A stretch of DNA of 44,882 nucleotides from a phage: sequence record PZ445419.1; one strand, written 5' to 3'. The position numbers and the translations under genes are program-made. Below are positions 1,397 to 44,882 of this stretch, one piece after another (position 1 is the stretch's first letter; each line of letters opens with the position of its first letter). The notes beneath the pieces are model-generated. The model did no database searches, was not told the DNA's origin, and saw nothing but the letters and a program-made list of their open reading frames with translations.

Positions 1397-2917
1397 ATGA
1401 CCGTTAACGTTGACAACCAGCACCCGCTCTATGCGCGCATCGCGCCAGAGTGGAAAATGATCCGTGACTGCGTAGCAGGGGAGCGCGCCGTGAAGGCGTG
1501 CGGCCCCTTATACCTGCCACACCCAGCCAGTGGCGACAACACTGACCCGAAAGCACGGGCGCGGTATAAGGCGTACAAGCAACGCGCTGTATTCCTGAAC
1601 GCCACCGCCCGCACACTTAACGCGCTGTTAGGCGTTGCCTTTGCTAAACCGGTAAGTCTCGACCTTTCCGGGGCGATGGCGGACCTTATTGACGACGTAG
1701 ACGGCAGTGGTATGCCGCTGCCGCAACTCCTGCGCGGTGCTATGTCAGAAGTGCTGCAATCAGGTCGTGCGGGCTTTATGGTGGACTACGATCGCCAGGC
1801 GCATTTTGATGAACTGGGTAACGTAGTGCCGCAGACCGCCGCGGAGATGGCGTCACACCGCCCGCTTATCCGCCTGTACTCGGCAGAACAGATCATCAAC
1901 TGGCGGCAGACCCACGGCGTCGATACGCTAATTGTGCTGAAGGAAACGGACGAAATCAGCACCGAAGACCCGGACGACTTCGCAAACCACGAAGTAACAA
2001 TCTGGACCGAGCTTCGCATGATTAACGGCGCTGCACACGCCCGCCGCTGGTTCTACAACGCGGACACGTCCGAGGTGCAAATGGACTTGCCGCGTGGATT
2101 CACCCGCACCGACCTTGTACCGCTGGTGGATGCTGCCGGTAATGCGCTGACACAACTTCCGTTTTGCTGGTGTGGCGCGGTAGACAACAACGCGACGCCT
2201 GACGCCGCGCCGCTGGCGGATATTGCGTCCATCAACATTAAGCACTACAACGCCGAAGCGGACGTCGCCGAGATTGCGCACATCGTGGGCCAACCTACCC
2301 TGGTTGCGACAGGCTTGACTCAATCGTGGGCGGACAAAAACCTGAAAGGCGGCATCGCGCTCGGAGCTACTAAGGGCGTTATCCTGGGTCAGAACATGGA
2401 CGCTAAACTGATCCAGGCCGAGGAGCGCAACTTGTCTGTTGCACTGTGTGAGCGCCGCGAATTGCAAATGGCTAAACTGGGCGCAGCCCTGGTTGAGAAG
2501 GGGACCGCACCTAAGACGGCAACCGAGGCGGCCTATGATGCGCAGACTGATAACAGTATCCTGTCGCTTATTGCCGGTAACGTTGAGAAGGCTTTCAACC
2601 GTGCGCTGCAAATCGTGCAGCTATTCACGGGCGACACCGCTGATCAACGCGTAACGCTGAATAAGTTCTACACCGAGATCACGGTTGATGCGCAGCTTAT
2701 GACCGCGATGATGTCGGGTGTGCAGACTGGTACGGTCCGCCTGGCTGATTTCATCAAGTGGATGATGGCGCAGGGGGTCATCGACGACTCGCAAACCGTC
2801 GAGCAGGTGGAAGACGAATTGCGAAATCAGAATCCATTGCCTCAAATGTCCCCTGATGCGGTAGAATCTACCGAAGAAGACCCGGACAAGGTAGCGGACA
2901 ATGGCGAAGACAATTAA
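1397..2917 (+). CDS. portal protein
   Basis: 506-aa ORF directly after terL with AAGGA RBS; size, position and acidic C-terminal tail are typical of portal proteins. Confidence 0.75.
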   Translation: MTVNVDNQHPLYARIAPEWKMIRDCVAGERAVKACGPLYLPHPASGDNTDPKARARYKAYKQRAVFLNATARTLNALLGVAFAKPVSLDLSGAMADLIDDVDGSGMPLPQLLRGAMSEVLQSGRAGFMVDYDRQAHFDELGNVVPQTAAEMASHRPLIRLYSAEQIINWRQTHGVDTLIVLKETDEISTEDPDDFANHEVTIWTELRMINGAAHARRWFYNADTSEVQMDLPRGFTRTDLVPLVDAAGNALTQLPFCWCGAVDNNATPDAAPLADIASINIKHYNAEADVAEIAHIVGQPTLVATGLTQSWADKNLKGGIALGATKGVILGQNMDAKLIQAEERNLSVALCERRELQMAKLGAALVEKGTAPKTATEAAYDAQTDNSILSLIAGNVEKAFNRALQIVQLFTGDTADQRVTLNKFYTEITVDAQLMTAMMSGVQTGTVRLADFIKWMMAQGVIDDSQTVEQVEDELRNQNPLPQMSPDAVESTEEDPDKVADNGEDN

Positions 2918-4004
2918 TCAACATTTGGCGGATCGAATGATTCGCCGTCACATCTTCACCCAGCGCCTGAGCAATGAACAGGCGCGGAGGGTGCTGGCTA
3001 TGTGGGAGAAGTTCCGGCCCACTTTACTTGGTAAGCTGACCGAGTTACTTGATGGCAAAAAGTCCATGAGCAACAAGGCACTTACCACACTGTTAACCCA
3101 AATCGACAAGACCGTCAAAACGGAACTGCGCGCCGAGTTTAAAGTGCTGGCGGAGAGCCTTCAGGAGTTCGCCGACACCGAGGCTGATTATCTCGCGGAC
3201 ACACTAACGGCAGCGATCCAGCCCGCGGTCGCCGTACCAGCGGTTGAGGTGGTGGGTGTAGTGACTGGCGCGCAGATTGCAGCGACGGCAATGAAAAACC
3301 CGTTCCAGGGTAATACGATGATGCAATGGCCTGATTCACTTTCCGAGTGGACCAGGACGCAGATCGGCAATCAGGTGCGCGCTGGATTCATCCAGGGCAA
3401 GCCGACGATGGAAATTATTGCGGACGTGAGGCGCGCGCTAGGCGGTCGTAGTGCGCAAGCAATCTCAAGCGTTGTTAAGTCCGCGGTCAACCACTATGCG
3501 GCGACCGCCCGCGAATTAATGGTAAAAGCTAATGACGATATTCTCGAAGGTCGCCAATGGTTGGCTACATTGGACACGCATACTTCTCCCATGTGCCAGC
3601 TACGCGATCGCCTGTTTTATCCGGTTGATGTTACTCCCGACACCAAAGGAAAACGCGGCGGGAAAGTGGTGGCGGGATCACAATATGGCGCTGGTCCGGG
3701 CAAGCTGCATTATTGCTGCCGATCGACGGAGACGTGGAAAGTTAAGGGCATGGAAGATTGGCCCAGTGGTAAGCGTCCGGCACTGAAGGCTGACGCGGGC
3801 AGGTTGCTGAGTGAGCAGGTCGACGCGCAGACTGATTTCTTCTCGTGGGTGCAGCGCCAGCCGCGCCATATCCTGGAGGAGTTATATGGAGTGCAACGCG
3901 CCGACCAGATTATGCGCGGCGTGAAAGTGCCGAAGATGTTTACCGATACGGGCGAACTAATGACTATTGCGCAGCTTAAAAACCGGGGGCTATGGCGTGA
4001 TTAA
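2901..4004 (+). CDS. head morphogenesis protein (SPP1 gp7 / Mu F-like)
   Basis: 367-aa ORF overlapping the portal 3' end; position and sequence character match minor head/morphogenesis proteins. Confidence 0.6.
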   Translation: MAKTINQHLADRMIRRHIFTQRLSNEQARRVLAMWEKFRPTLLGKLTELLDGKKSMSNKALTTLLTQIDKTVKTELRAEFKVLAESLQEFADTEADYLADTLTAAIQPAVAVPAVEVVGVVTGAQIAATAMKNPFQGNTMMQWPDSLSEWTRTQIGNQVRAGFIQGKPTMEIIADVRRALGGRSAQAISSVVKSAVNHYAATARELMVKANDDILEGRQWLATLDTHTSPMCQLRDRLFYPVDVTPDTKGKRGGKVVAGSQYGAGPGKLHYCCRSTETWKVKGMEDWPSGKRPALKADAGRLLSEQVDAQTDFFSWVQRQPRHILEELYGVQRADQIMRGVKVPKMFTDTGELMTIAQLKNRGLWRD

Positions 4005-7945: not shown

Positions 7946-8285
7946 TTACGCGGGGTTAAAGCGGAAAGTCAATCCGTTGATTAAAAAGTTCGGCATGACG
8001 GCTACGGTGACGCGTCCGGGGTCGGTTGACCGCGTAGACGGCGACGAAGTGATAATCCCGCCAACGTCGTTCGACGTCATCGGTCTTCGAGAGGAGTACA
8101 ATCCGAGCGAGATCGACGGGACGCGTATCGTTGCCGGAGATGTGAAGTTTTTGTGTCAGGCCGTCAAGCAGGTAAAGGTCGGGGATTTGGTTAGCCTGAA
8201 CAATACAGACTACCGGGTTATCAATCCCAACCCCCTGCAACCGGCGGGCCAGACCATGCTGTTTCAACTACAGCTAAGGGGCTAA
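7932..8285 (+). CDS. head-tail joining protein (putative)
   Basis: 117-aa ORF with AGGAGG RBS in the connector region. Confidence 0.5.
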   Translation: MAGFNYAGLKRKVNPLIKKFGMTATVTRPGSVDRVDGDEVIIPPTSFDVIGLREEYNPSEIDGTRIVAGDVKFLCQAVKQVKVGDLVSLNNTDYRVINPNPLQPAGQTMLFQLQLRG

Positions 8286-8286
8286 C

Positions 8287-8880
8287 GTGGCTGAAGTCTA
8301 CTCGTTCGCCGCCACTATTGCTACGTGGGTGGATAAGACGAAGGAGAACAACGACAAGGCGGTGCGGGCGTACGGTATGCAAATACTCGGACGCCTGATC
8401 GAGATCTCCCCAGTGGGCGACCCGCGCCGATGGAAAATTAACAGGGCTTACGCGCTCGCCCGCCAGCACGCAAACAAGGTGAACGCCGCACAGCGTCGCA
8501 AGAATGGCGGCAAACTGAAGCGCGGTCAGAAGAAGCACGCCAGTGTGCTGGTATCATTCAAAACTAAAAACGGCAACGTCACGTTCCGCCAGCGCGGCTG
8601 GGCCGCGAAGAATTACACCGGGGGGCGCTTCCGGGGGAACTGGCAGGTGACGTTCGACCGCCCGGCTGTGGGCGCTATTGACCGCGTGGACAAGGCCGGA
8701 ACGGCAACATTAGCCGCTGGGCGTGAAGTGCTGGCACATTACGATTCGAGTGAATACGGGTCGATCTGGTTTACTAACAACGTGCCATACGCGCAGCGCC
8801 TAGAGTATGGCTGGAGTAAACAAGCGCCCGCGGGGATTGTTCGCGTAGTAGCGGCAGAAATTAATTCGAAGGTGAAATAA
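8287..8880 (+). CDS. HK97 gp10-like tail/neck component
   Basis: 197-aa ORF (GTG start) with C-terminal NNVPYAQRLEYGW motif resembling the HK97 gp10 family signature. Confidence 0.55.
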   Translation: MAEVYSFAATIATWVDKTKENNDKAVRAYGMQILGRLIEISPVGDPRRWKINRAYALARQHANKVNAAQRRKNGGKLKRGQKKHASVLVSFKTKNGNVTFRQRGWAAKNYTGGRFRGNWQVTFDRPAVGAIDRVDKAGTATLAAGREVLAHYDSSEYGSIWFTNNVPYAQRLEYGWSKQAPAGIVRVVAAEINSKVK

Positions 8881-23837: not shown

Positions 23838-24359
23838 TTATTTAAGTGCGCCAGTCACCAGTGTTTTTTCCATGTTACGGAAATCTTCCTGCGTCATGCA
23901 GATTTTCGATCCGTCTTCGCCGGTGAGTACGACCATAGGCTGGACGTCCTGGGATACGACGCCGAAATCGGCGGCTTTGACAGTCTTGCCCGCAGATGCC
24001 GAAGGACGCCACGTTCCGCCGGTGGAGATGGGCCAGCCTTTGAGGCTGTCGAATTGTGCTGCCGTTGTATCGATCTGAATCTCGTCATGCACGGTCATGT
24101 AAGACTCACCCAGCAGTGCGGCATATGCTACCAGGTCAACGATGTTATCGTCCTGGTGCTTACGGTGCTGGCGTACCAGCTTCAGGCAGATCAGGAAGGT
24201 CCAGGCTTCTTGCTCGGTAAGGTCGCGACCGGTAAGCGCGTTAAACACGGCAGCGATCTGCTTAGCACTGCGTTCTTCTTTCGCGTTGTCATAGCCATTC
24301 TCTTTCCCGCGCTGTTCCATAGTGGTGGCGGCGTTTTTGCAGTATTCGTATGCTTTCAT
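23838..24359 (-). CDS. hypothetical protein
   Basis: 173-aa ORF with AAAGGAAA RBS directly downstream of a palindromic promoter/operator. Confidence 0.55.
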   Translation of the reverse strand: MKAYEYCKNAATTMEQRGKENGYDNAKEERSAKQIAAVFNALTGRDLTEQEAWTFLICLKLVRQHRKHQDDNIVDLVAYAALLGESYMTVHDEIQIDTTAAQFDSLKGWPISTGGTWRPSASAGKTVKAADFGVVSQDVQPMVVLTGEDGSKICMTQEDFRNMEKTLVTGALK

Positions 24360-24401: not shown

Positions 24402-24431
24402 AATATAATGCAACCAACCTATTGGTTGCAA
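24402..24431 (-). promoter_or_regulatory. candidate sigma70-type promoter overlapping a palindromic ATTGGTTGC operator
   Basis: Minus strand TTGCAA-18 nt-TATATT; spacer is the perfect inverted repeat TGCAACCAA-tagg-TTGGTTGCA (24409-24430); GC hairpin in the leader at 24376-24395. Confidence 0.45.
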
Positions 24432-24889
24432 GTGAATTTTGCAACGTTAATTGCGTAAATTTTCGGGACCAGATCGCTGCACGCCCGACGAATTGCCGCG
24501 ATGTTCTTCGGGCAGTCCTCAATGATGACCAGTTCAGACACGTCCGCGTAGCAGACCATTTTGAACACGGCGCACGCCTTAAACTCAGGCGGTGGGGTGT
24601 CGTCCAACATGTGGCGCATAAACAACCGGCCTGTCGGGAATACTTCCAGTTGCTCGGCGGTAGTCTCCCAACATTCGCGCTGCCGGTTAGTCAGATACGC
24701 TATCTCGAAGCCTTGCTCTTTGTACATGCGCAGCAGCGGCAGCATATCCATGTTCAGGTCTTCGCGGACGTGCGCTTTGTGCCACTTTGCCCAAAAGGTT
24801 GATTTCGTTTTTATGCCCGGCACCAGGTCGGCGCGTGCATCACTCGAACCATTAATAACGCCATCCAAATCGCAAATCAGTAATTTCAT
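24419..24889 (-). CDS. HAD-superfamily phosphatase-like protein
   Basis: 156-aa ORF beginning MKLLICDLDGVING (HAD motif I DxDGx). Confidence 0.55.
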   Translation of the reverse strand: MKLLICDLDGVINGSSDARADLVPGIKTKSTFWAKWHKAHVREDLNMDMLPLLRMYKEQGFEIAYLTNRQRECWETTAEQLEVFPTGRLFMRHMLDDTPPPEFKACAVFKMVCYADVSELVIIEDCPKNIAAIRRACSDLVPKIYAINVAKFTCNQ

Positions 24890-42645: not shown

Positions 42646-42650
42646 ACACG

Positions 42651-42676
42651 AAGCCCGGTTAATTCCGGGCTTTTTA
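42651..42676 (+). terminator. intrinsic terminator after the lysis cassette
   Basis: AAGCCCGG-ttaatt-CCGGGCTT followed by TTTTT. Confidence 0.65.
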
Positions 42677-42680
42677 TTGC

Positions 42681-42710
42681 TTGACTTGCAACCAACATAG
42701 ACGCCATACT
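42681..42710 (+). promoter_or_regulatory. candidate sigma70-type promoter with ATTGGTTGC-family motifs
   Basis: TTGACT-18 nt-CATACT directly after the terminator; TGCAACCAA in the spacer (42687-42695) and GCGACCAAT just after the -10 (42711-42719). Confidence 0.45.
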
Positions 42711-42740: not shown

Positions 42741-42830
42741 ATGGCACGTAATGATATTTGGGTATTGGCAATCTGGTCCGCCGCGGCATTTATTGGAATG
42801 GTAATTTGTGAGGTGACTTATGGCATTTAA
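42741..42830 (+). CDS. small membrane peptide (hypothetical)
   Basis: 29-aa ORF MARNDIWVLAIWSAAAFIGMVICEVTYGI with AAGAGGAG RBS. Confidence 0.3.
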   Translation: MARNDIWVLAIWSAAAFIGMVICEVTYGI

Positions 42831-42993
42831 ACCGCAACGCGATTCCCGCCCTATGGCGGAACGACCGCGGGCCTCCCAAATGGAGGCGTCATTCTTCCGG
42901 GGTCTTTCGTTCCTGACAAAGAAAGAGCAGGGGAAAGTCATGGGTGAGTTCCGCCGCGTATTGGCGGAATTCAAGCAGCAAGACGCAGAATAG
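42820..42993 (+). CDS. small hypothetical protein
   Basis: 57-aa ORF overlapping the previous stop. Confidence 0.3.
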   Translation: MAFKPQRDSRPMAERPRASQMEASFFRGLSFLTKKEQGKVMGEFRRVLAEFKQQDAE

Positions 42994-43057: not shown

Positions 43058-44200
43058 ATGCACCCGCAAACTAAAATTACCGATGAGCAATTGATCGCAG
43101 AAATTCAGGCAGGGACTACGGTTAAAGAGATTGCGAAGAAATACGGGATTGCCCTGCGCAATGTCTATATGCGCAAAGCCCGCCTGTCGAAAAAGGGGAT
43201 TGGTCACGGCAATGATGCAGTGATCCGTAAGCGCGTTGCAGATGGGTTTGGGGTTAAGCGCGTGTCTGCCCTGGTGCGCGGCAATGGCGAGGAGGTCATG
43301 TCGTGGGTAATCACTGAGCAGGACAAAGAGCGCCAACTCGAAGCCATGCGCGCTGTTGTCGAGGGTATGAACAGCGAAATCACACCGGCAGCGCCAGTAA
43401 AAGCCCCGCCAGTACCGATCCAGGCGCTCGACTTGCTCAACCTGTACACCGTGTCAGACTTCCACCTGGGCATGTTGGCATGGGGCGAGGAGACTGGCGA
43501 AGACTGGGATATGGCGATCGCCGAAGACCTGTTCTACCGCTGGTTTGTCGAAGCCTTCGCACGCGCCCCGGACGCAGGCACTGCCGTAATTAATATCCTC
43601 GGTGATATGGCCCACTTTGATAGCCTCGATGCTGTCACTCCGGCAAGTGGTCACGTACTGGACGCGGATACCCGTTACCAGAAGCTGGTCCGCTACATGA
43701 TTCGCATGGTGCGCAACGTGGTAGACCTGGCGCTGCAAAAACACCACAAAGTCAAACTTCTAATCGTCCAGGGGAATCATGACGAGTCGGGTATGATTTG
43801 GCTTGCGGAGATGTTCAATACCCTGTATGAGAACGAGCCGCGCGTCGATGTGGACACGTCCCCGGACGTATACAAGATGGTGCAGCACGGCAAGACCACG
43901 CTGTTTTTCCACCACGGGCACAAAGCACGCTTTGACGCAATCGAGACGGTTATGATTGCTAAGTTCAGGAAAGCATTTGGCGAAAGCGAGTACAGCTACG
44001 CGCATGTCGGTCACTTGCACCACCAGAAGATTGTAGAATCCCGTAACATGATAGTTGAACAGCACCGGACACTCGCAGCGAAAGACGCATATGCAAGCCG
44101 CGGCGGTTGGATGTCCGGTCGCAGTGCCAACGTCATCACCTACAGCGCCAATTACGGCGAAGTGGCGCGCTTAACCATTAGCCCGGAGATGTTGAAGTAA
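43058..44200 (+). CDS. HTH domain fused to calcineurin-like metallophosphoesterase (putative nuclease/phosphatase)
   Basis: 380-aa ORF; N-terminal HTH-like TVKEIAKKYGIALRNVYMRKAR; metal-binding motifs SDFHLG, GDMAHFD, GNHDE, FHHGH, GHLHH. Confidence 0.6.
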   Translation: MHPQTKITDEQLIAEIQAGTTVKEIAKKYGIALRNVYMRKARLSKKGIGHGNDAVIRKRVADGFGVKRVSALVRGNGEEVMSWVITEQDKERQLEAMRAVVEGMNSEITPAAPVKAPPVPIQALDLLNLYTVSDFHLGMLAWGEETGEDWDMAIAEDLFYRWFVEAFARAPDAGTAVINILGDMAHFDSLDAVTPASGHVLDADTRYQKLVRYMIRMVRNVVDLALQKHHKVKLLIVQGNHDESGMIWLAEMFNTLYENEPRVDVDTSPDVYKMVQHGKTTLFFHHGHKARFDAIETVMIAKFRKAFGESEYSYAHVGHLHHQKIVESRNMIVEQHRTLAAKDAYASRGGWMSGRSANVITYSANYGEVARLTISPEMLK

Positions 44201-44210
44201 CGGCAACCCG

Positions 44211-44246
44211 TAAGCCTCCCAGCCTGCCGATTTGGTGGGCTTTTTT
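44211..44246 (+). terminator. terminator-like hairpin upstream of terS
   Basis: Imperfect stem AGCCTCCC...GGTGGGCT followed by TTTTTT. Confidence 0.35.
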
Positions 44247-44331
44247 GTGCCTGTTATAATCCCCCCTTAGATGGCTGGGCCGTCTCCTATGTTGCCGATG
44301 GTCGGCGCATATGAACAAAAGGGCATATATC

Positions 44332-44882
44332 ATGGCAGAAATCAAAGTTAAGGGTCGACGCGCCAAACTGGACGGACGAGTAGCAGTTACCCCGCGCCGT
44401 AAACCAGGAGAGCAAACCGAGCATACCAATCTCGGACCTGAAATCGAGTACGGTAAGCGCCGTAAAGGCGGCAAATGTGGACGCCCTACTGACTACAGAT
44501 CCGTTTACTGCGACCAGCTTCGCCGCTATTTTGCCGACGCAGTCGCATGGCAGGTCAACTACTCCGATAAAGGCGCTGCGCAAGTAATCCCCCGCAACAA
44601 AATGCCAACCTTCGGTCGATTTGCCGCTGAAATCGGCGTAGGCGTAGCTTGCCTGTACCGCTGGGCGCGAGCACATGAGGAGTTTGCCGAAGCGATGGCG
44701 GACGCAATGGAACTGCAGAAAACTTTCCTGATGGAAGCCGGTGGCGTGACCATCGCGGCAGGCTTCGCTACGTTCCTGCTTAAAGCAAACCACGGCGTCC
44801 GCGACGATGTGCCGCTGGATGACGACGAAGATGATAACGGCGACGTCGTAGTGGAACCTACCGGCAAAGGCCAGGGTGAATA
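44332..44882 (+). CDS. terS: terminase small subunit (3' end runs off the window; stop completed by base 1 if circular)
   Basis: At least 183 codons; HTH-like FGRFAAEIGVGVACLYRWARAHEEF typical of small terminase DNA-binding domains; acidic C-terminus; final TA plus base 1 gives TAA overlapping the terL ATG. Confidence 0.65.
   Translation, partial: MAEIKVKGRRAKLDGRVAVTPRRKPGEQTEHTNLGPEIEYGKRRKGGKCGRPTDYRSVYCDQLRRYFADAVAWQVNYSDKGAAQVIPRNKMPTFGRFAAEIGVGVACLYRWARAHEEFAEAMADAMELQKTFLMEAGGVTIAAGFATFLLKANHGVRDDVPLDDDEDDNGDVVVEPTGKGQGE

Follow-up and report, generated by a model that had tools for sequence, protein, structure and literature searches.

Metallophosphoesterases (MPEs) encoded by phages have been studied experimentally in mycobacteriophages. 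The early protein gp48 of phage A10ZJ24 has both phosphodiesterase and DNase activity, breaks down host DNA and is inactivated by mutation of its motifs; phage DNA replication in M. tuberculosis depends on it (PMC12287305). Its homologue gp47 of phage Bxb1 is an integrase directionality factor (PMC11795197), and in experiments these proteins behave as DNases or weak 3′ exonucleases required for phage DNA replication (PMC12287305, PMC11795197). Here, we compare these systems with bas18_0065, a gene near the right end of sequence record PZ445419.1. The window (44,882 bp) corresponds to the entire genome of Escherichia phage Oekolampad (Bas18, MZ501095.1, genus Dhillonvirus), rotated by 551 nt relative to MZ501095.1 so that position 1 is the terL ATG. 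The gene product joins a helix-turn-helix (HTH) domain to an MPE domain, and we give a probability of roughly 0.55 to the view that it is a stand-alone, HTH-tethered DNA exo- or endonuclease of the Mre11/DP1 kind that serves phage replication and recombination.

Related enzymes are known from other systems. In phage T5, the pre-early protein A1 takes part in the breakdown of host DNA and in host shut-off; it has a DNA-binding partner, A2, and a nucleotidase, dmp, is encoded nearby. In Mre11/SbcD, DNA specificity is given by a capping domain and a Rad50/SbcC partner. The 380-residue product of the Oekolampad open reading frame (ORF) is 100% identical to bas18_0065 of MZ501095.1, where it is labelled “hypothetical protein”, while close relatives carry the labels “putative (calcineurin-like) phosphoesterase” or “DNA repair exonuclease”. 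It matches PHROG 704 (“DNA repair exonuclease”) over its full length (E = 7.8e-162, 539.8 bits, residues 5-380 aligned with positions 2-390 of a 390-position profile); this family name is a computational annotation. The gene and its parts are as follows.

43058-44200, + strand: bas18_0065, HTH-metallophosphoesterase (PHROG 704), ORF starting with ATG, 380 amino acids
43058-43207, + strand: N-terminal HTH domain of LuxR/GerE/sigma-70 region 4 type, residues 1-50, with helices at residues 9-17, 22-29 and 33-45
43247-43375, + strand: β-hairpin (residues 64-73 and 79-88) and helix (90-106), predicted with a local confidence (pLDDT) of ~70-75 and flanked by low-confidence linkers
43433-44197, + strand: metallophosphoesterase catalytic domain, residues 126-380, from profile matches, alignment and structure model
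43457-43465, + strand: motif I, D134-F-H136, from sequence and alignment, as are the following four
43601-43621, + strand: motif II, G182-D183-M-A-H186-F-D188
43772-43783, + strand: motif III, G239-N240-H241-D242
43910-43921, + strand: motif IV, H285-H286-G287-H288
44009-44023, + strand: motif V, G318-H319-L-H321-H322

The catalytic domain shows both hallmarks of the calcineurin-like superfamily, i.e., the five-motif signature (D-x-H / G-D / G-N-H-[DE] / H / G-H-x-H) and the α/β sandwich fold. An initial sequence-only reading of this DNA had listed intact DxH, GDxxH, GNHD/E, HH and GHxH motifs, and all five could be located and proved invariant or at least 90% conserved in an alignment of 34 family representatives with 32-49% identity to the query. 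Invariant positions are D134, H136, G182, D183, D188, T194, N240, H241, H286, G287, G318 and H321 as well as W83 (43304-43306), which lies inside the β-hairpin/helix module; H186, H285, H288, H319, D242, D202, R206 and others are conserved in at least 90% of the sequences. The Pfam models Metallophos_2 (PF12850; E = 6e-5, 23.5 bits against a gathering cut-off of 27) and Metallophos (PF00149; E = 1e-3, 20.0 bits against 21.5) are matched below threshold, and PF00149 is matched at E < 0.01 by 9 of the 34 family members. Judging from these scores, bas18_0065 is best regarded as a divergent member of the superfamily, not as a non-member. Among close relatives, identity amounts to 90-94% in the catalytic domain versus 57-69% in the N-terminal 125 residues. 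As the catalytic residues are strictly conserved, the sequences argue that the enzyme, and not the HTH, is the constrained part of the protein.

To place the fold, an AlphaFold2 model was built on the 34-sequence alignment (mean pLDDT 87.4, pTM 0.76). The model runs from the HTH helices through a low-confidence linker, the hairpin and helix, and a Pro/Ala-rich linker into the well-predicted catalytic domain (residues 126-380). A Foldseek search against the PDB returned DP1, the proofreading exonuclease subunit of archaeal DNA polymerase D (PolD), and Mre11 first (3e-8), and structures of PPP protein phosphatases scored far below the nucleases. Among viral models in BFVD, the entries ranking below the family members were labelled “DNA polymerase II small subunit” or “metallophosphatase”. 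In terms of this model, the fold lies nearest to the nuclease branch of the superfamily, with a small margin over small-molecule phosphodiesterases. Sequence-based searches were less informative. Comparing the single protein with the PDB gave only spurious matches to designed repeat proteins, the family profile reached Thermotoga maritima SbcD/Mre11 insignificantly (E = 1.7) and over motifs I-II only, and searches of NCBIfam and PADLOC with bas18_0065 yielded nothing significant. As for the comparison of Mre11/SbcD-like, PP-lambda-like and cyclic-nucleotide phosphodiesterase families that had been proposed as a check, nuclease folds ranked first, PP-lambda received a probability of 0.7%, and the SbcD profile match was insignificant.

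The presence of an HTH domain ahead of the phosphoesterase, proposed from the letters alone, is confirmed by the predicted helices at residues 9-45 and by matches at the family level. The Oekolampad protein alone gives sub-threshold HTH matches only (GerE with E = 0.017, HTH_28 and HTH_7 in Pfam), while individual family members match Sigma70_r4_2 (1.5e-9), GerE (2.4e-8), HTH_28, HTH_23 and HTH_8. The family profile finds GerE (1FSE, E = 0.0047) in the PDB, followed by a series of NarL, VraR, DesR, FixJ and ComA HTH domains; all of its HTH matches there are of the GerE/LuxR/NarL type, belong to other transcription regulators or are designed HTH repeats. The proposed resemblance to a small-terminase DNA-binding domain did not hold up: no small terminase was among the PDB matches of the family profile, and BLASTP of residues 1-80 against the phage’s own TerS gave nothing significant (E = 2.4 over 9 residues). 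The HTH fusion itself was found in all 34 family members sampled. Expressed as differences between close relatives, the HTH/hairpin region (encoded by 43058-43432) diverges by ~31-43% versus 6-10% for the catalytic domain (43433-44197), and residues ~52-100 occur as two mosaic alleles that are shared between Escherichia and Salmonella phage lineages.

How does this architecture compare with the described enzymes? Bxb1 gp47, L5 gp54 and A10ZJ24 gp48 share with bas18_0065 the five motifs, and their genes lie in replication modules. Bxb1 gp47 also has the same top structural neighbours (Mre11, DP1 5IHE and LpxH; PMC11795197). Its gene is two genes away from that of the DUF6378 protein gp49 (7964-8515 of the Bxb1 locus L151, E = 1.7e-29) and near EndoVII and primase genes; in Streptomyces phage Success, the gene next downstream of the gp47 homologue encodes a protein in which Pfam recognises a sigma-70 region 4 HTH. 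Unlike bas18_0065, proteins of the gp47 group comprise ~255 residues without a fused HTH or β-hairpin module, and the moonlighting of gp47 as a recombination directionality factor is specific to the Bxb1 serine integrase. The gp47 group is the nearest characterised functional counterpart, not a demonstrated close relative.

An HTH fusion is not a feature of Mre11/SbcD, including T4 gp47, or of archaeal PolD DP1, and no DP2-interacting or oligonucleotide-binding (OB) domain as in PolD DP1 was recognised in bas18_0065. The T5 A1 family displays a complete MPE motif set (GDIH, HD, SNHD, HGH, GHTH) in an alignment of five homologues, although a Pfam search of A1 returned no domain. In this alignment, which joins A1 (1709-3376 of T5 locus L094) to homologues from Agrobacterium, Caulobacter, Flavobacterium and Vibrio phages, GDxH, HD, SNHD, HGH and GHxH are invariant, and the A1 homologue genes of the non-T5 phages lie within replication modules. 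The parallel to T5 is conceptual and consists of an MPE, a DNA-binding protein and a nucleotide-salvage enzyme. In contrast to bas18_0065, A1 has 556 residues, a different N-terminal region and a separate DNA-binding partner, and the two-step DNA transfer of T5 is inapplicable here. Lambda NinI (PP-lambda), also a metallophosphoesterase, shares a genomic slot with the lambdoid-like relatives of bas18_0065 described below, but its catalytic domain shows no similarity, and the PPP signature (GDxHG, GDxVDRG, GNHE) is not present in bas18_0065. PHROG 704 is thus a distinct branch among phage metallophosphoesterases.

Within PHROG 704, bas18_0065 is an ordinary member that does not differ from the others; the order of HTH, linker and MPE is common to the 34 sampled members. 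Members labelled “putative calcineurin-like phosphoesterase” occur in Dhillonvirus, Drexlerviridae (T1-like), Guernseyvirinae, Webervirus and Jedunavirus. Homologues are present in 2047 of 50,697 phage records, mainly of Escherichia, Klebsiella, Salmonella, Vibrio and Campylobacter phages. Clusters at 90% identity gave 3738 matches to the family, and clustering at 50% gave 4679 representatives at E ≤ 1e-3 and 1140 at E ≤ 1e-30; among the matches listed, most of these representatives are 370-420 residues long. Homologues covering most of the query are found in ~100 Dhillonvirus-like records and in very many records of T1-like, Klebsiella and Salmonella phages. These counts of carriers suggest a core rather than a sporadic gene, apparently in T1-like phages, the Dhillonviruses of the BASEL collection and Jersey-like Salmonella phages. 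We also considered a selfish element of the homing-endonuclease kind, given the combination of HTH and nuclease, the variable site and the variable DNA-binding part, and judged it unlikely because near-full-length homologues are so widespread. In some phages the gene is seemingly split or truncated (entries of phiJLA23, Salmonella phage 36, Jk06 and KpV79), and PHROGs 20703 and 20762 as well as some BFVD entries correspond to N- or C-terminal halves of the family protein.

To learn where the gene resides in other lineages, we fetched 80 viral loci and 51 loci from bacterial genomes, called ORFs and clustered the neighbours over 140 loci, which fall into 40 lineages at 65% identity; the neighbour counts are lower bounds from BLAST-only clustering. 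In Drexlerviridae (damhaus, GH-K3), the homologue follows helicase, VRR-NUC and Dam genes and precedes the lysis genes. In Kagunavirus and Jerseyvirus, a superinfection-immunity gene precedes it in a small cassette that lies within the tail genes on the opposite strand. In Jedunavirus it comes after the primase gene and stops at an annotated terminator. On one metagenomic phage contig the homologue lies directly after a DnaB helicase gene with UvsX and PolB further upstream, on another it follows a DEAD/ResIII helicase gene, and one group of loci has genes for EndoVII and a FEN-like exonuclease upstream. In a large group of lambdoid-like contigs (~52% identity), the genes run in the order NinB/Orf, NinG/Rap and DUF6378, then the phosphoesterase, then a Q-like antiterminator (PF06530) followed by further ORFs; here, the phosphoesterase occupies the slot of lambda NinI, after NinB/NinG and just before Q, and terL follows 2-5 kb downstream of it. 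An endolysin gene lies within 8 ORFs in at least 9 of the 40 lineages. What these loci have in common is a position where the early/middle DNA-metabolism region ends, and not a packaging module.

A second recurrent theme is nucleotide metabolism. A HAD phosphatase or deoxynucleoside monophosphate (dNMP) kinase is encoded adjacent to the homologue in at least 7 of 40 lineages, a count that includes bacterial genome assemblies, which are probably prophages. The HAD phosphatase is of the Pnkp type (PF25109, E = 7e-20; PDB matches to Pnkp1 and T4 Pnk) and directly follows the phosphoesterase in Kagunavirus, Webervirus and three other lineages, and the P-loop protein beside it is a homologue of the T4 dNMP kinase (1DEK, E = 2.1e-18). 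Oekolampad has two related genes apart from bas18_0065.

24419-24889, − strand: bas18_0030, Pnkp-type HAD phosphatase, unlinked to the phosphoesterase
23838-24359, − strand: bas18_0029, DUF6378 protein, a recurrent neighbour of phage MPEs elsewhere (lambdoid-like contigs, Bxb1 gp49)

The DUF6378 gene thus adjoins the HAD phosphatase gene in this phage. No dNMP kinase homologue was found in the Oekolampad genome, and bas18_0028 was rejected as a hidden dNMP kinase partner. DUF6378 proteins, often mis-annotated as “phosphofructokinase”, recur beside metallophosphoesterases in phages of Proteobacteria and Actinobacteria, which suggests an uncharacterised functional link between the two.

In Oekolampad itself, bas18_0065 does lie directly upstream of terS, as the sequence-only reading had it, with the terS ATG 131 nt downstream of the gene. 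The boundary contains the following elements.

44212-44248, + strand: intrinsic terminator (G+C hairpin and T-run) at the end of the phosphoesterase unit, kept in 7 Dhillonviruses
44252-44260, + strand: extended −10 promoter TGTTATAAT of the terS/late operon, read directly from the sequence and not listed by a consensus scan because it has no −35 element
44332-44882, + strand: terS, apparently in a separate transcription unit, with its ATG at 44332 and its stop codon completed by position 1
42650-42673: upstream terminator, from a sequence scan
42681-42710, + strand: promoter-like site TTGACT-18-CATACT, candidate start of a unit of two small ORFs and the phosphoesterase

RNAfold gives the terminator at 44212-44248 a folding energy of −20.9 kcal/mol (z = −2.1), and in the Dhillonvirus relative L021 its stem has a different sequence that is still self-complementary, i.e., a compensatory change. 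The element TGTTATAAT is a perfect extended −10 (TGnTATAAT) located 72 nt before the terS ATG, and its TATAAT hexamer is invariant in 7 aligned Dhillonviruses, L021 having a 12-nt insertion just upstream. Since a conserved terminator and a promoter lie between the two genes, the phosphoesterase appears, as far as can be read from the sequence, to be the last gene of one transcription unit, and terS the first of another.

Several further observations concern this region. The leader 44252-44331 is almost invariant in the 7 Dhillonviruses, and shortly before terS it contains the inverted repeat GCCGA-TGG-TCGGC, which could be a regulatory hairpin or protein-binding site for late/packaging gene expression. 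The stretch from the upstream terminator to the phosphoesterase contains two small ORFs, 42741-42830 (29 residues, hydrophobic) and 42820-42993 (57 residues); both are unannotated in MZ501095.1, equivalents are annotated in Shigella phage 1b, and the 57-residue product had no PHROG or Pfam match. The 10-mer CGCCATACTG occurs in three exact copies in the genome (42702-42711, 43002-43011 and 30991-31000; ~0.09 expected by our own estimate). Two of them, both upstream of the phosphoesterase, are spaced by exactly 300 nt; the earlier one overlaps the −10 of TTGACT-18-CATACT, and the 10-mer may be a phage promoter or operator motif. Finally, three Dhillonvirus relatives (L001 at 8198-8400, L020 and L021) possess an extra ORF of ~195 nt between the phosphoesterase and the conserved terminator, its ATG overlapping the phosphoesterase stop (ATGA), which is not found in Oekolampad.

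The ORF, its motifs, fold, family, HTH type, transcription-unit boundary and neighbour counts were established here; from these we infer the DNA substrate, nuclease activity and biological role of bas18_0065. In the proposed mechanism, a stand-alone, Mn2+/Mg2+-dependent MPE domain would carry out catalysis, and the LuxR/sigma-r4-type HTH would tether it to DNA via the flexible linker and the β-hairpin/helix module. Its gene would be the last of a rightward early/middle operon comprising primase-helicase, small ORFs, lysis genes and the phosphoesterase itself. The enzyme would most likely act on DNA ends or branched intermediates in phage replication and recombination, and possibly also degrade host DNA, thereby feeding nucleotide salvage where kinase and phosphatase are linked. 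Most likely, it stands outside the packaging machinery, and its adjacency to terS is incidental, the two genes meeting at the junction of the early/middle and late modules. This agrees with the sequence-only reading insofar as the protein is not a standard packaging component. As for the suggested nuclease acting at packaging, a nuclease remains the most plausible activity, but the link to packaging is weak in view of the conserved terminator and promoter and of the absence of terminase neighbours in Drexlerviridae, Guernseyvirinae, Jedunavirus and many metagenomic lineages, whose homologues accompany genes of replication, recombination and nucleotide metabolism.

Several points weigh against a replication or recombination nuclease, and we list them together. 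In the Foldseek search, the cyclic-nucleotide phosphodiesterase Rv0805 (E = 9e-8), GpdQ and YfcE rank close behind DP1 and Mre11. The chain ends 58 residues past motif V, so that a Mre11-type capping domain C-terminal to the phosphoesterase core is not present. Likewise, no Rad50/SbcC-like ATPase is among the 65 annotated genes of the genome, for which no dedicated SbcC hidden Markov model (HMM) was run; the only ORFs large enough for SbcC are those of the tape measure and tail-tip proteins, and no Rad50/SbcC gene lies next to the homologues in the 140 loci. Profile similarity to characterised phage MPEs goes no further than the superfamily level: hhalign of the PHROG 704 alignment against a five-sequence gp47 alignment put motifs II-V in register over 154 columns with 30% probability (E = 5.6e-4), and the gp47 group and PHROG 704 gave no reciprocal tblastn matches. 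With T5 A1, 40 columns around motif III (NHD..S.WL) align at 61% probability; a specific kinship with A1 was ruled out on the ground that no more than these columns align. Neighbouring nucleotide-pool enzymes (dNMP kinase, HAD phosphatase and a dGTP-diphosphohydrolase-like protein) would fit a nucleotide substrate equally well. At least 4 of 40 lineages carry terL no more than a few kb downstream of the gene, and in one Logan contig (SRR35795014; locus L009, 1452-6756) a gene for a 398-residue homologue sits between terL (Terminase_6N) and a P22-type portal gene, an unusual insertion point that is more typical of mobile nuclease genes. Finally, the literature searched (Dhillonvirus, Drexlerviridae, SECphi4, Bas18, nin region, T1 host DNA degradation) held no biochemical or genetic work on any PHROG 704 member.

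An unlikely alternative is that bas18_0065 is a small-molecule phosphodiesterase or phosphatase acting on nucleotides, such as cyclic-nucleotide immune signals, 2′,3′-cyclic phosphates, dinucleoside polyphosphates or dNTP/dNMP pools, with the HTH serving only for localisation or autoregulation. The fold similarity to MJ0936, YfcE, Rv0805, GpdQ and Ap4A hydrolase nearly equals that to nucleases, and the recurrent T4-like dNMP kinase, HAD phosphatase and dGTP_diPhyd_N/DUF6378 neighbours would suit such a substrate. However, an HTH fusion in every member sampled speaks against it, as do the best structural and sequence-profile matches, which are nucleases. Moreover, no CpdA/Icc-type model was matched in Pfam or NCBIfam and nothing in PADLOC, and DNases/exonucleases are the nearest analogues among characterised phage proteins (PMC12287305, PMC11795197).

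We regard with similar reserve a more far-reaching version of the nuclease idea, in which T1-like, Dhillonvirus and Guernseyvirinae phages would have in the HTH-phosphoesterase their long-missing nuclease for host-DNA degradation and anti-defence, one chain doing the work of T5 A1 plus A2 and corresponding to gp48, with a linked salvage cassette. Here, the fast-evolving HTH/hairpin module would either aim the enzyme at host DNA or be the trace of an arms race with host sensors, and the often adjacent HAD phosphatase and dNMP kinase would recycle what the nuclease releases.

Less probable again is a role in RNA or DNA end healing, where a 2′,3′-cyclic phosphodiesterase or 3′-end-trimming nuclease would work with the Pnkp-type HAD 3′-phosphatase to repair damage by host-defence nucleases. 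The healing domain of Clostridium thermocellum Pnkp is a calcineurin-type phosphoesterase, which counts for this idea, as does the HAD phosphatase gene directly downstream in the five lineages mentioned above. On the other hand, the accompanying P-loop protein is a homologue of dNMP kinase (T4 gp1, 1DEK) and not of polynucleotide kinase, no ligase is linked, and the HAD gene is unlinked in Oekolampad and not adjacent in most lineages.

Improbable to a further degree is a protein phosphatase or mainly a transcription regulator, i.e., an equivalent of lambda NinI in position and function, fused to a NinH-like HTH, that would modify host or phage proteins or control the early-to-late switch. Occupation of the NinI slot (NinB ... 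NinG ... X ... Q) in the lambdoid-like relatives, an HTH type typical of transcription factors and the position just before the late promoter are in line with it, and so is a weak similarity of the N-terminus to lambda NinH, a small HTH protein (hhalign 52%, 26 columns). Yet the PP-lambda similarity is nil, the GDxVDRG/GNHE signature is absent, PPP structures rank far below nucleases, a separate Q-like regulator already exists in the lambdoid-like relatives, and the strict conservation of catalytic residues indicates that the enzyme is what is constrained. A NinH-NinI fusion was therefore rejected for the catalytic part, and what is left is a generic HTH match.

Least likely of all is a packaging nuclease whose HTH reads a pac-proximal site and whose phosphoesterase cuts or processes concatemers with TerS/TerL, which could draw on the position immediately upstream of terS in Dhillonvirus, the same-strand terL 2-5 kb downstream in at least 4 of 40 lineages and the one metagenomic contig with the gene between terL and portal, but which is countered by the conserved terminator and separate promoter before terS, by the lack of terminase adjacency in Drexlerviridae, Guernseyvirinae, Jedunavirus and the loci after replicative or DEAD-box helicases, by an HTH unrelated to the phage’s TerS, by the Q antiterminator and other ORFs that separate the gene from terL in lambdoid-like relatives, and by the fact that large terminases (TerL) carry their own nuclease.

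Our analysis corrects the impression that the phosphoesterase is a packaging factor. bas18_0065 is a typical member of a very common, computationally annotated and biochemically uncharacterised family, its architecture is not special to this phage, and as a phage enzyme it is so far of an expected rather than a surprising kind. That no member of so common a family has been characterised makes the matter relevant to the annotation of thousands of phage genomes. Comparable to Bxb1 gp47, a nuclease of the replication/recombination module whose gene recurs beside those of dNMP kinase, HAD phosphatase and DUF6378 proteins would be a concrete and testable function. If the host-DNA-degradation version were true, it would define a widespread stand-alone nuclease-plus-salvage cassette in ~4% of sequenced phages. 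More generally, should the nuclease role be true, the family could matter for phage-host conflict, through degradation of host DNA or as triggers or inhibitors of defence systems.

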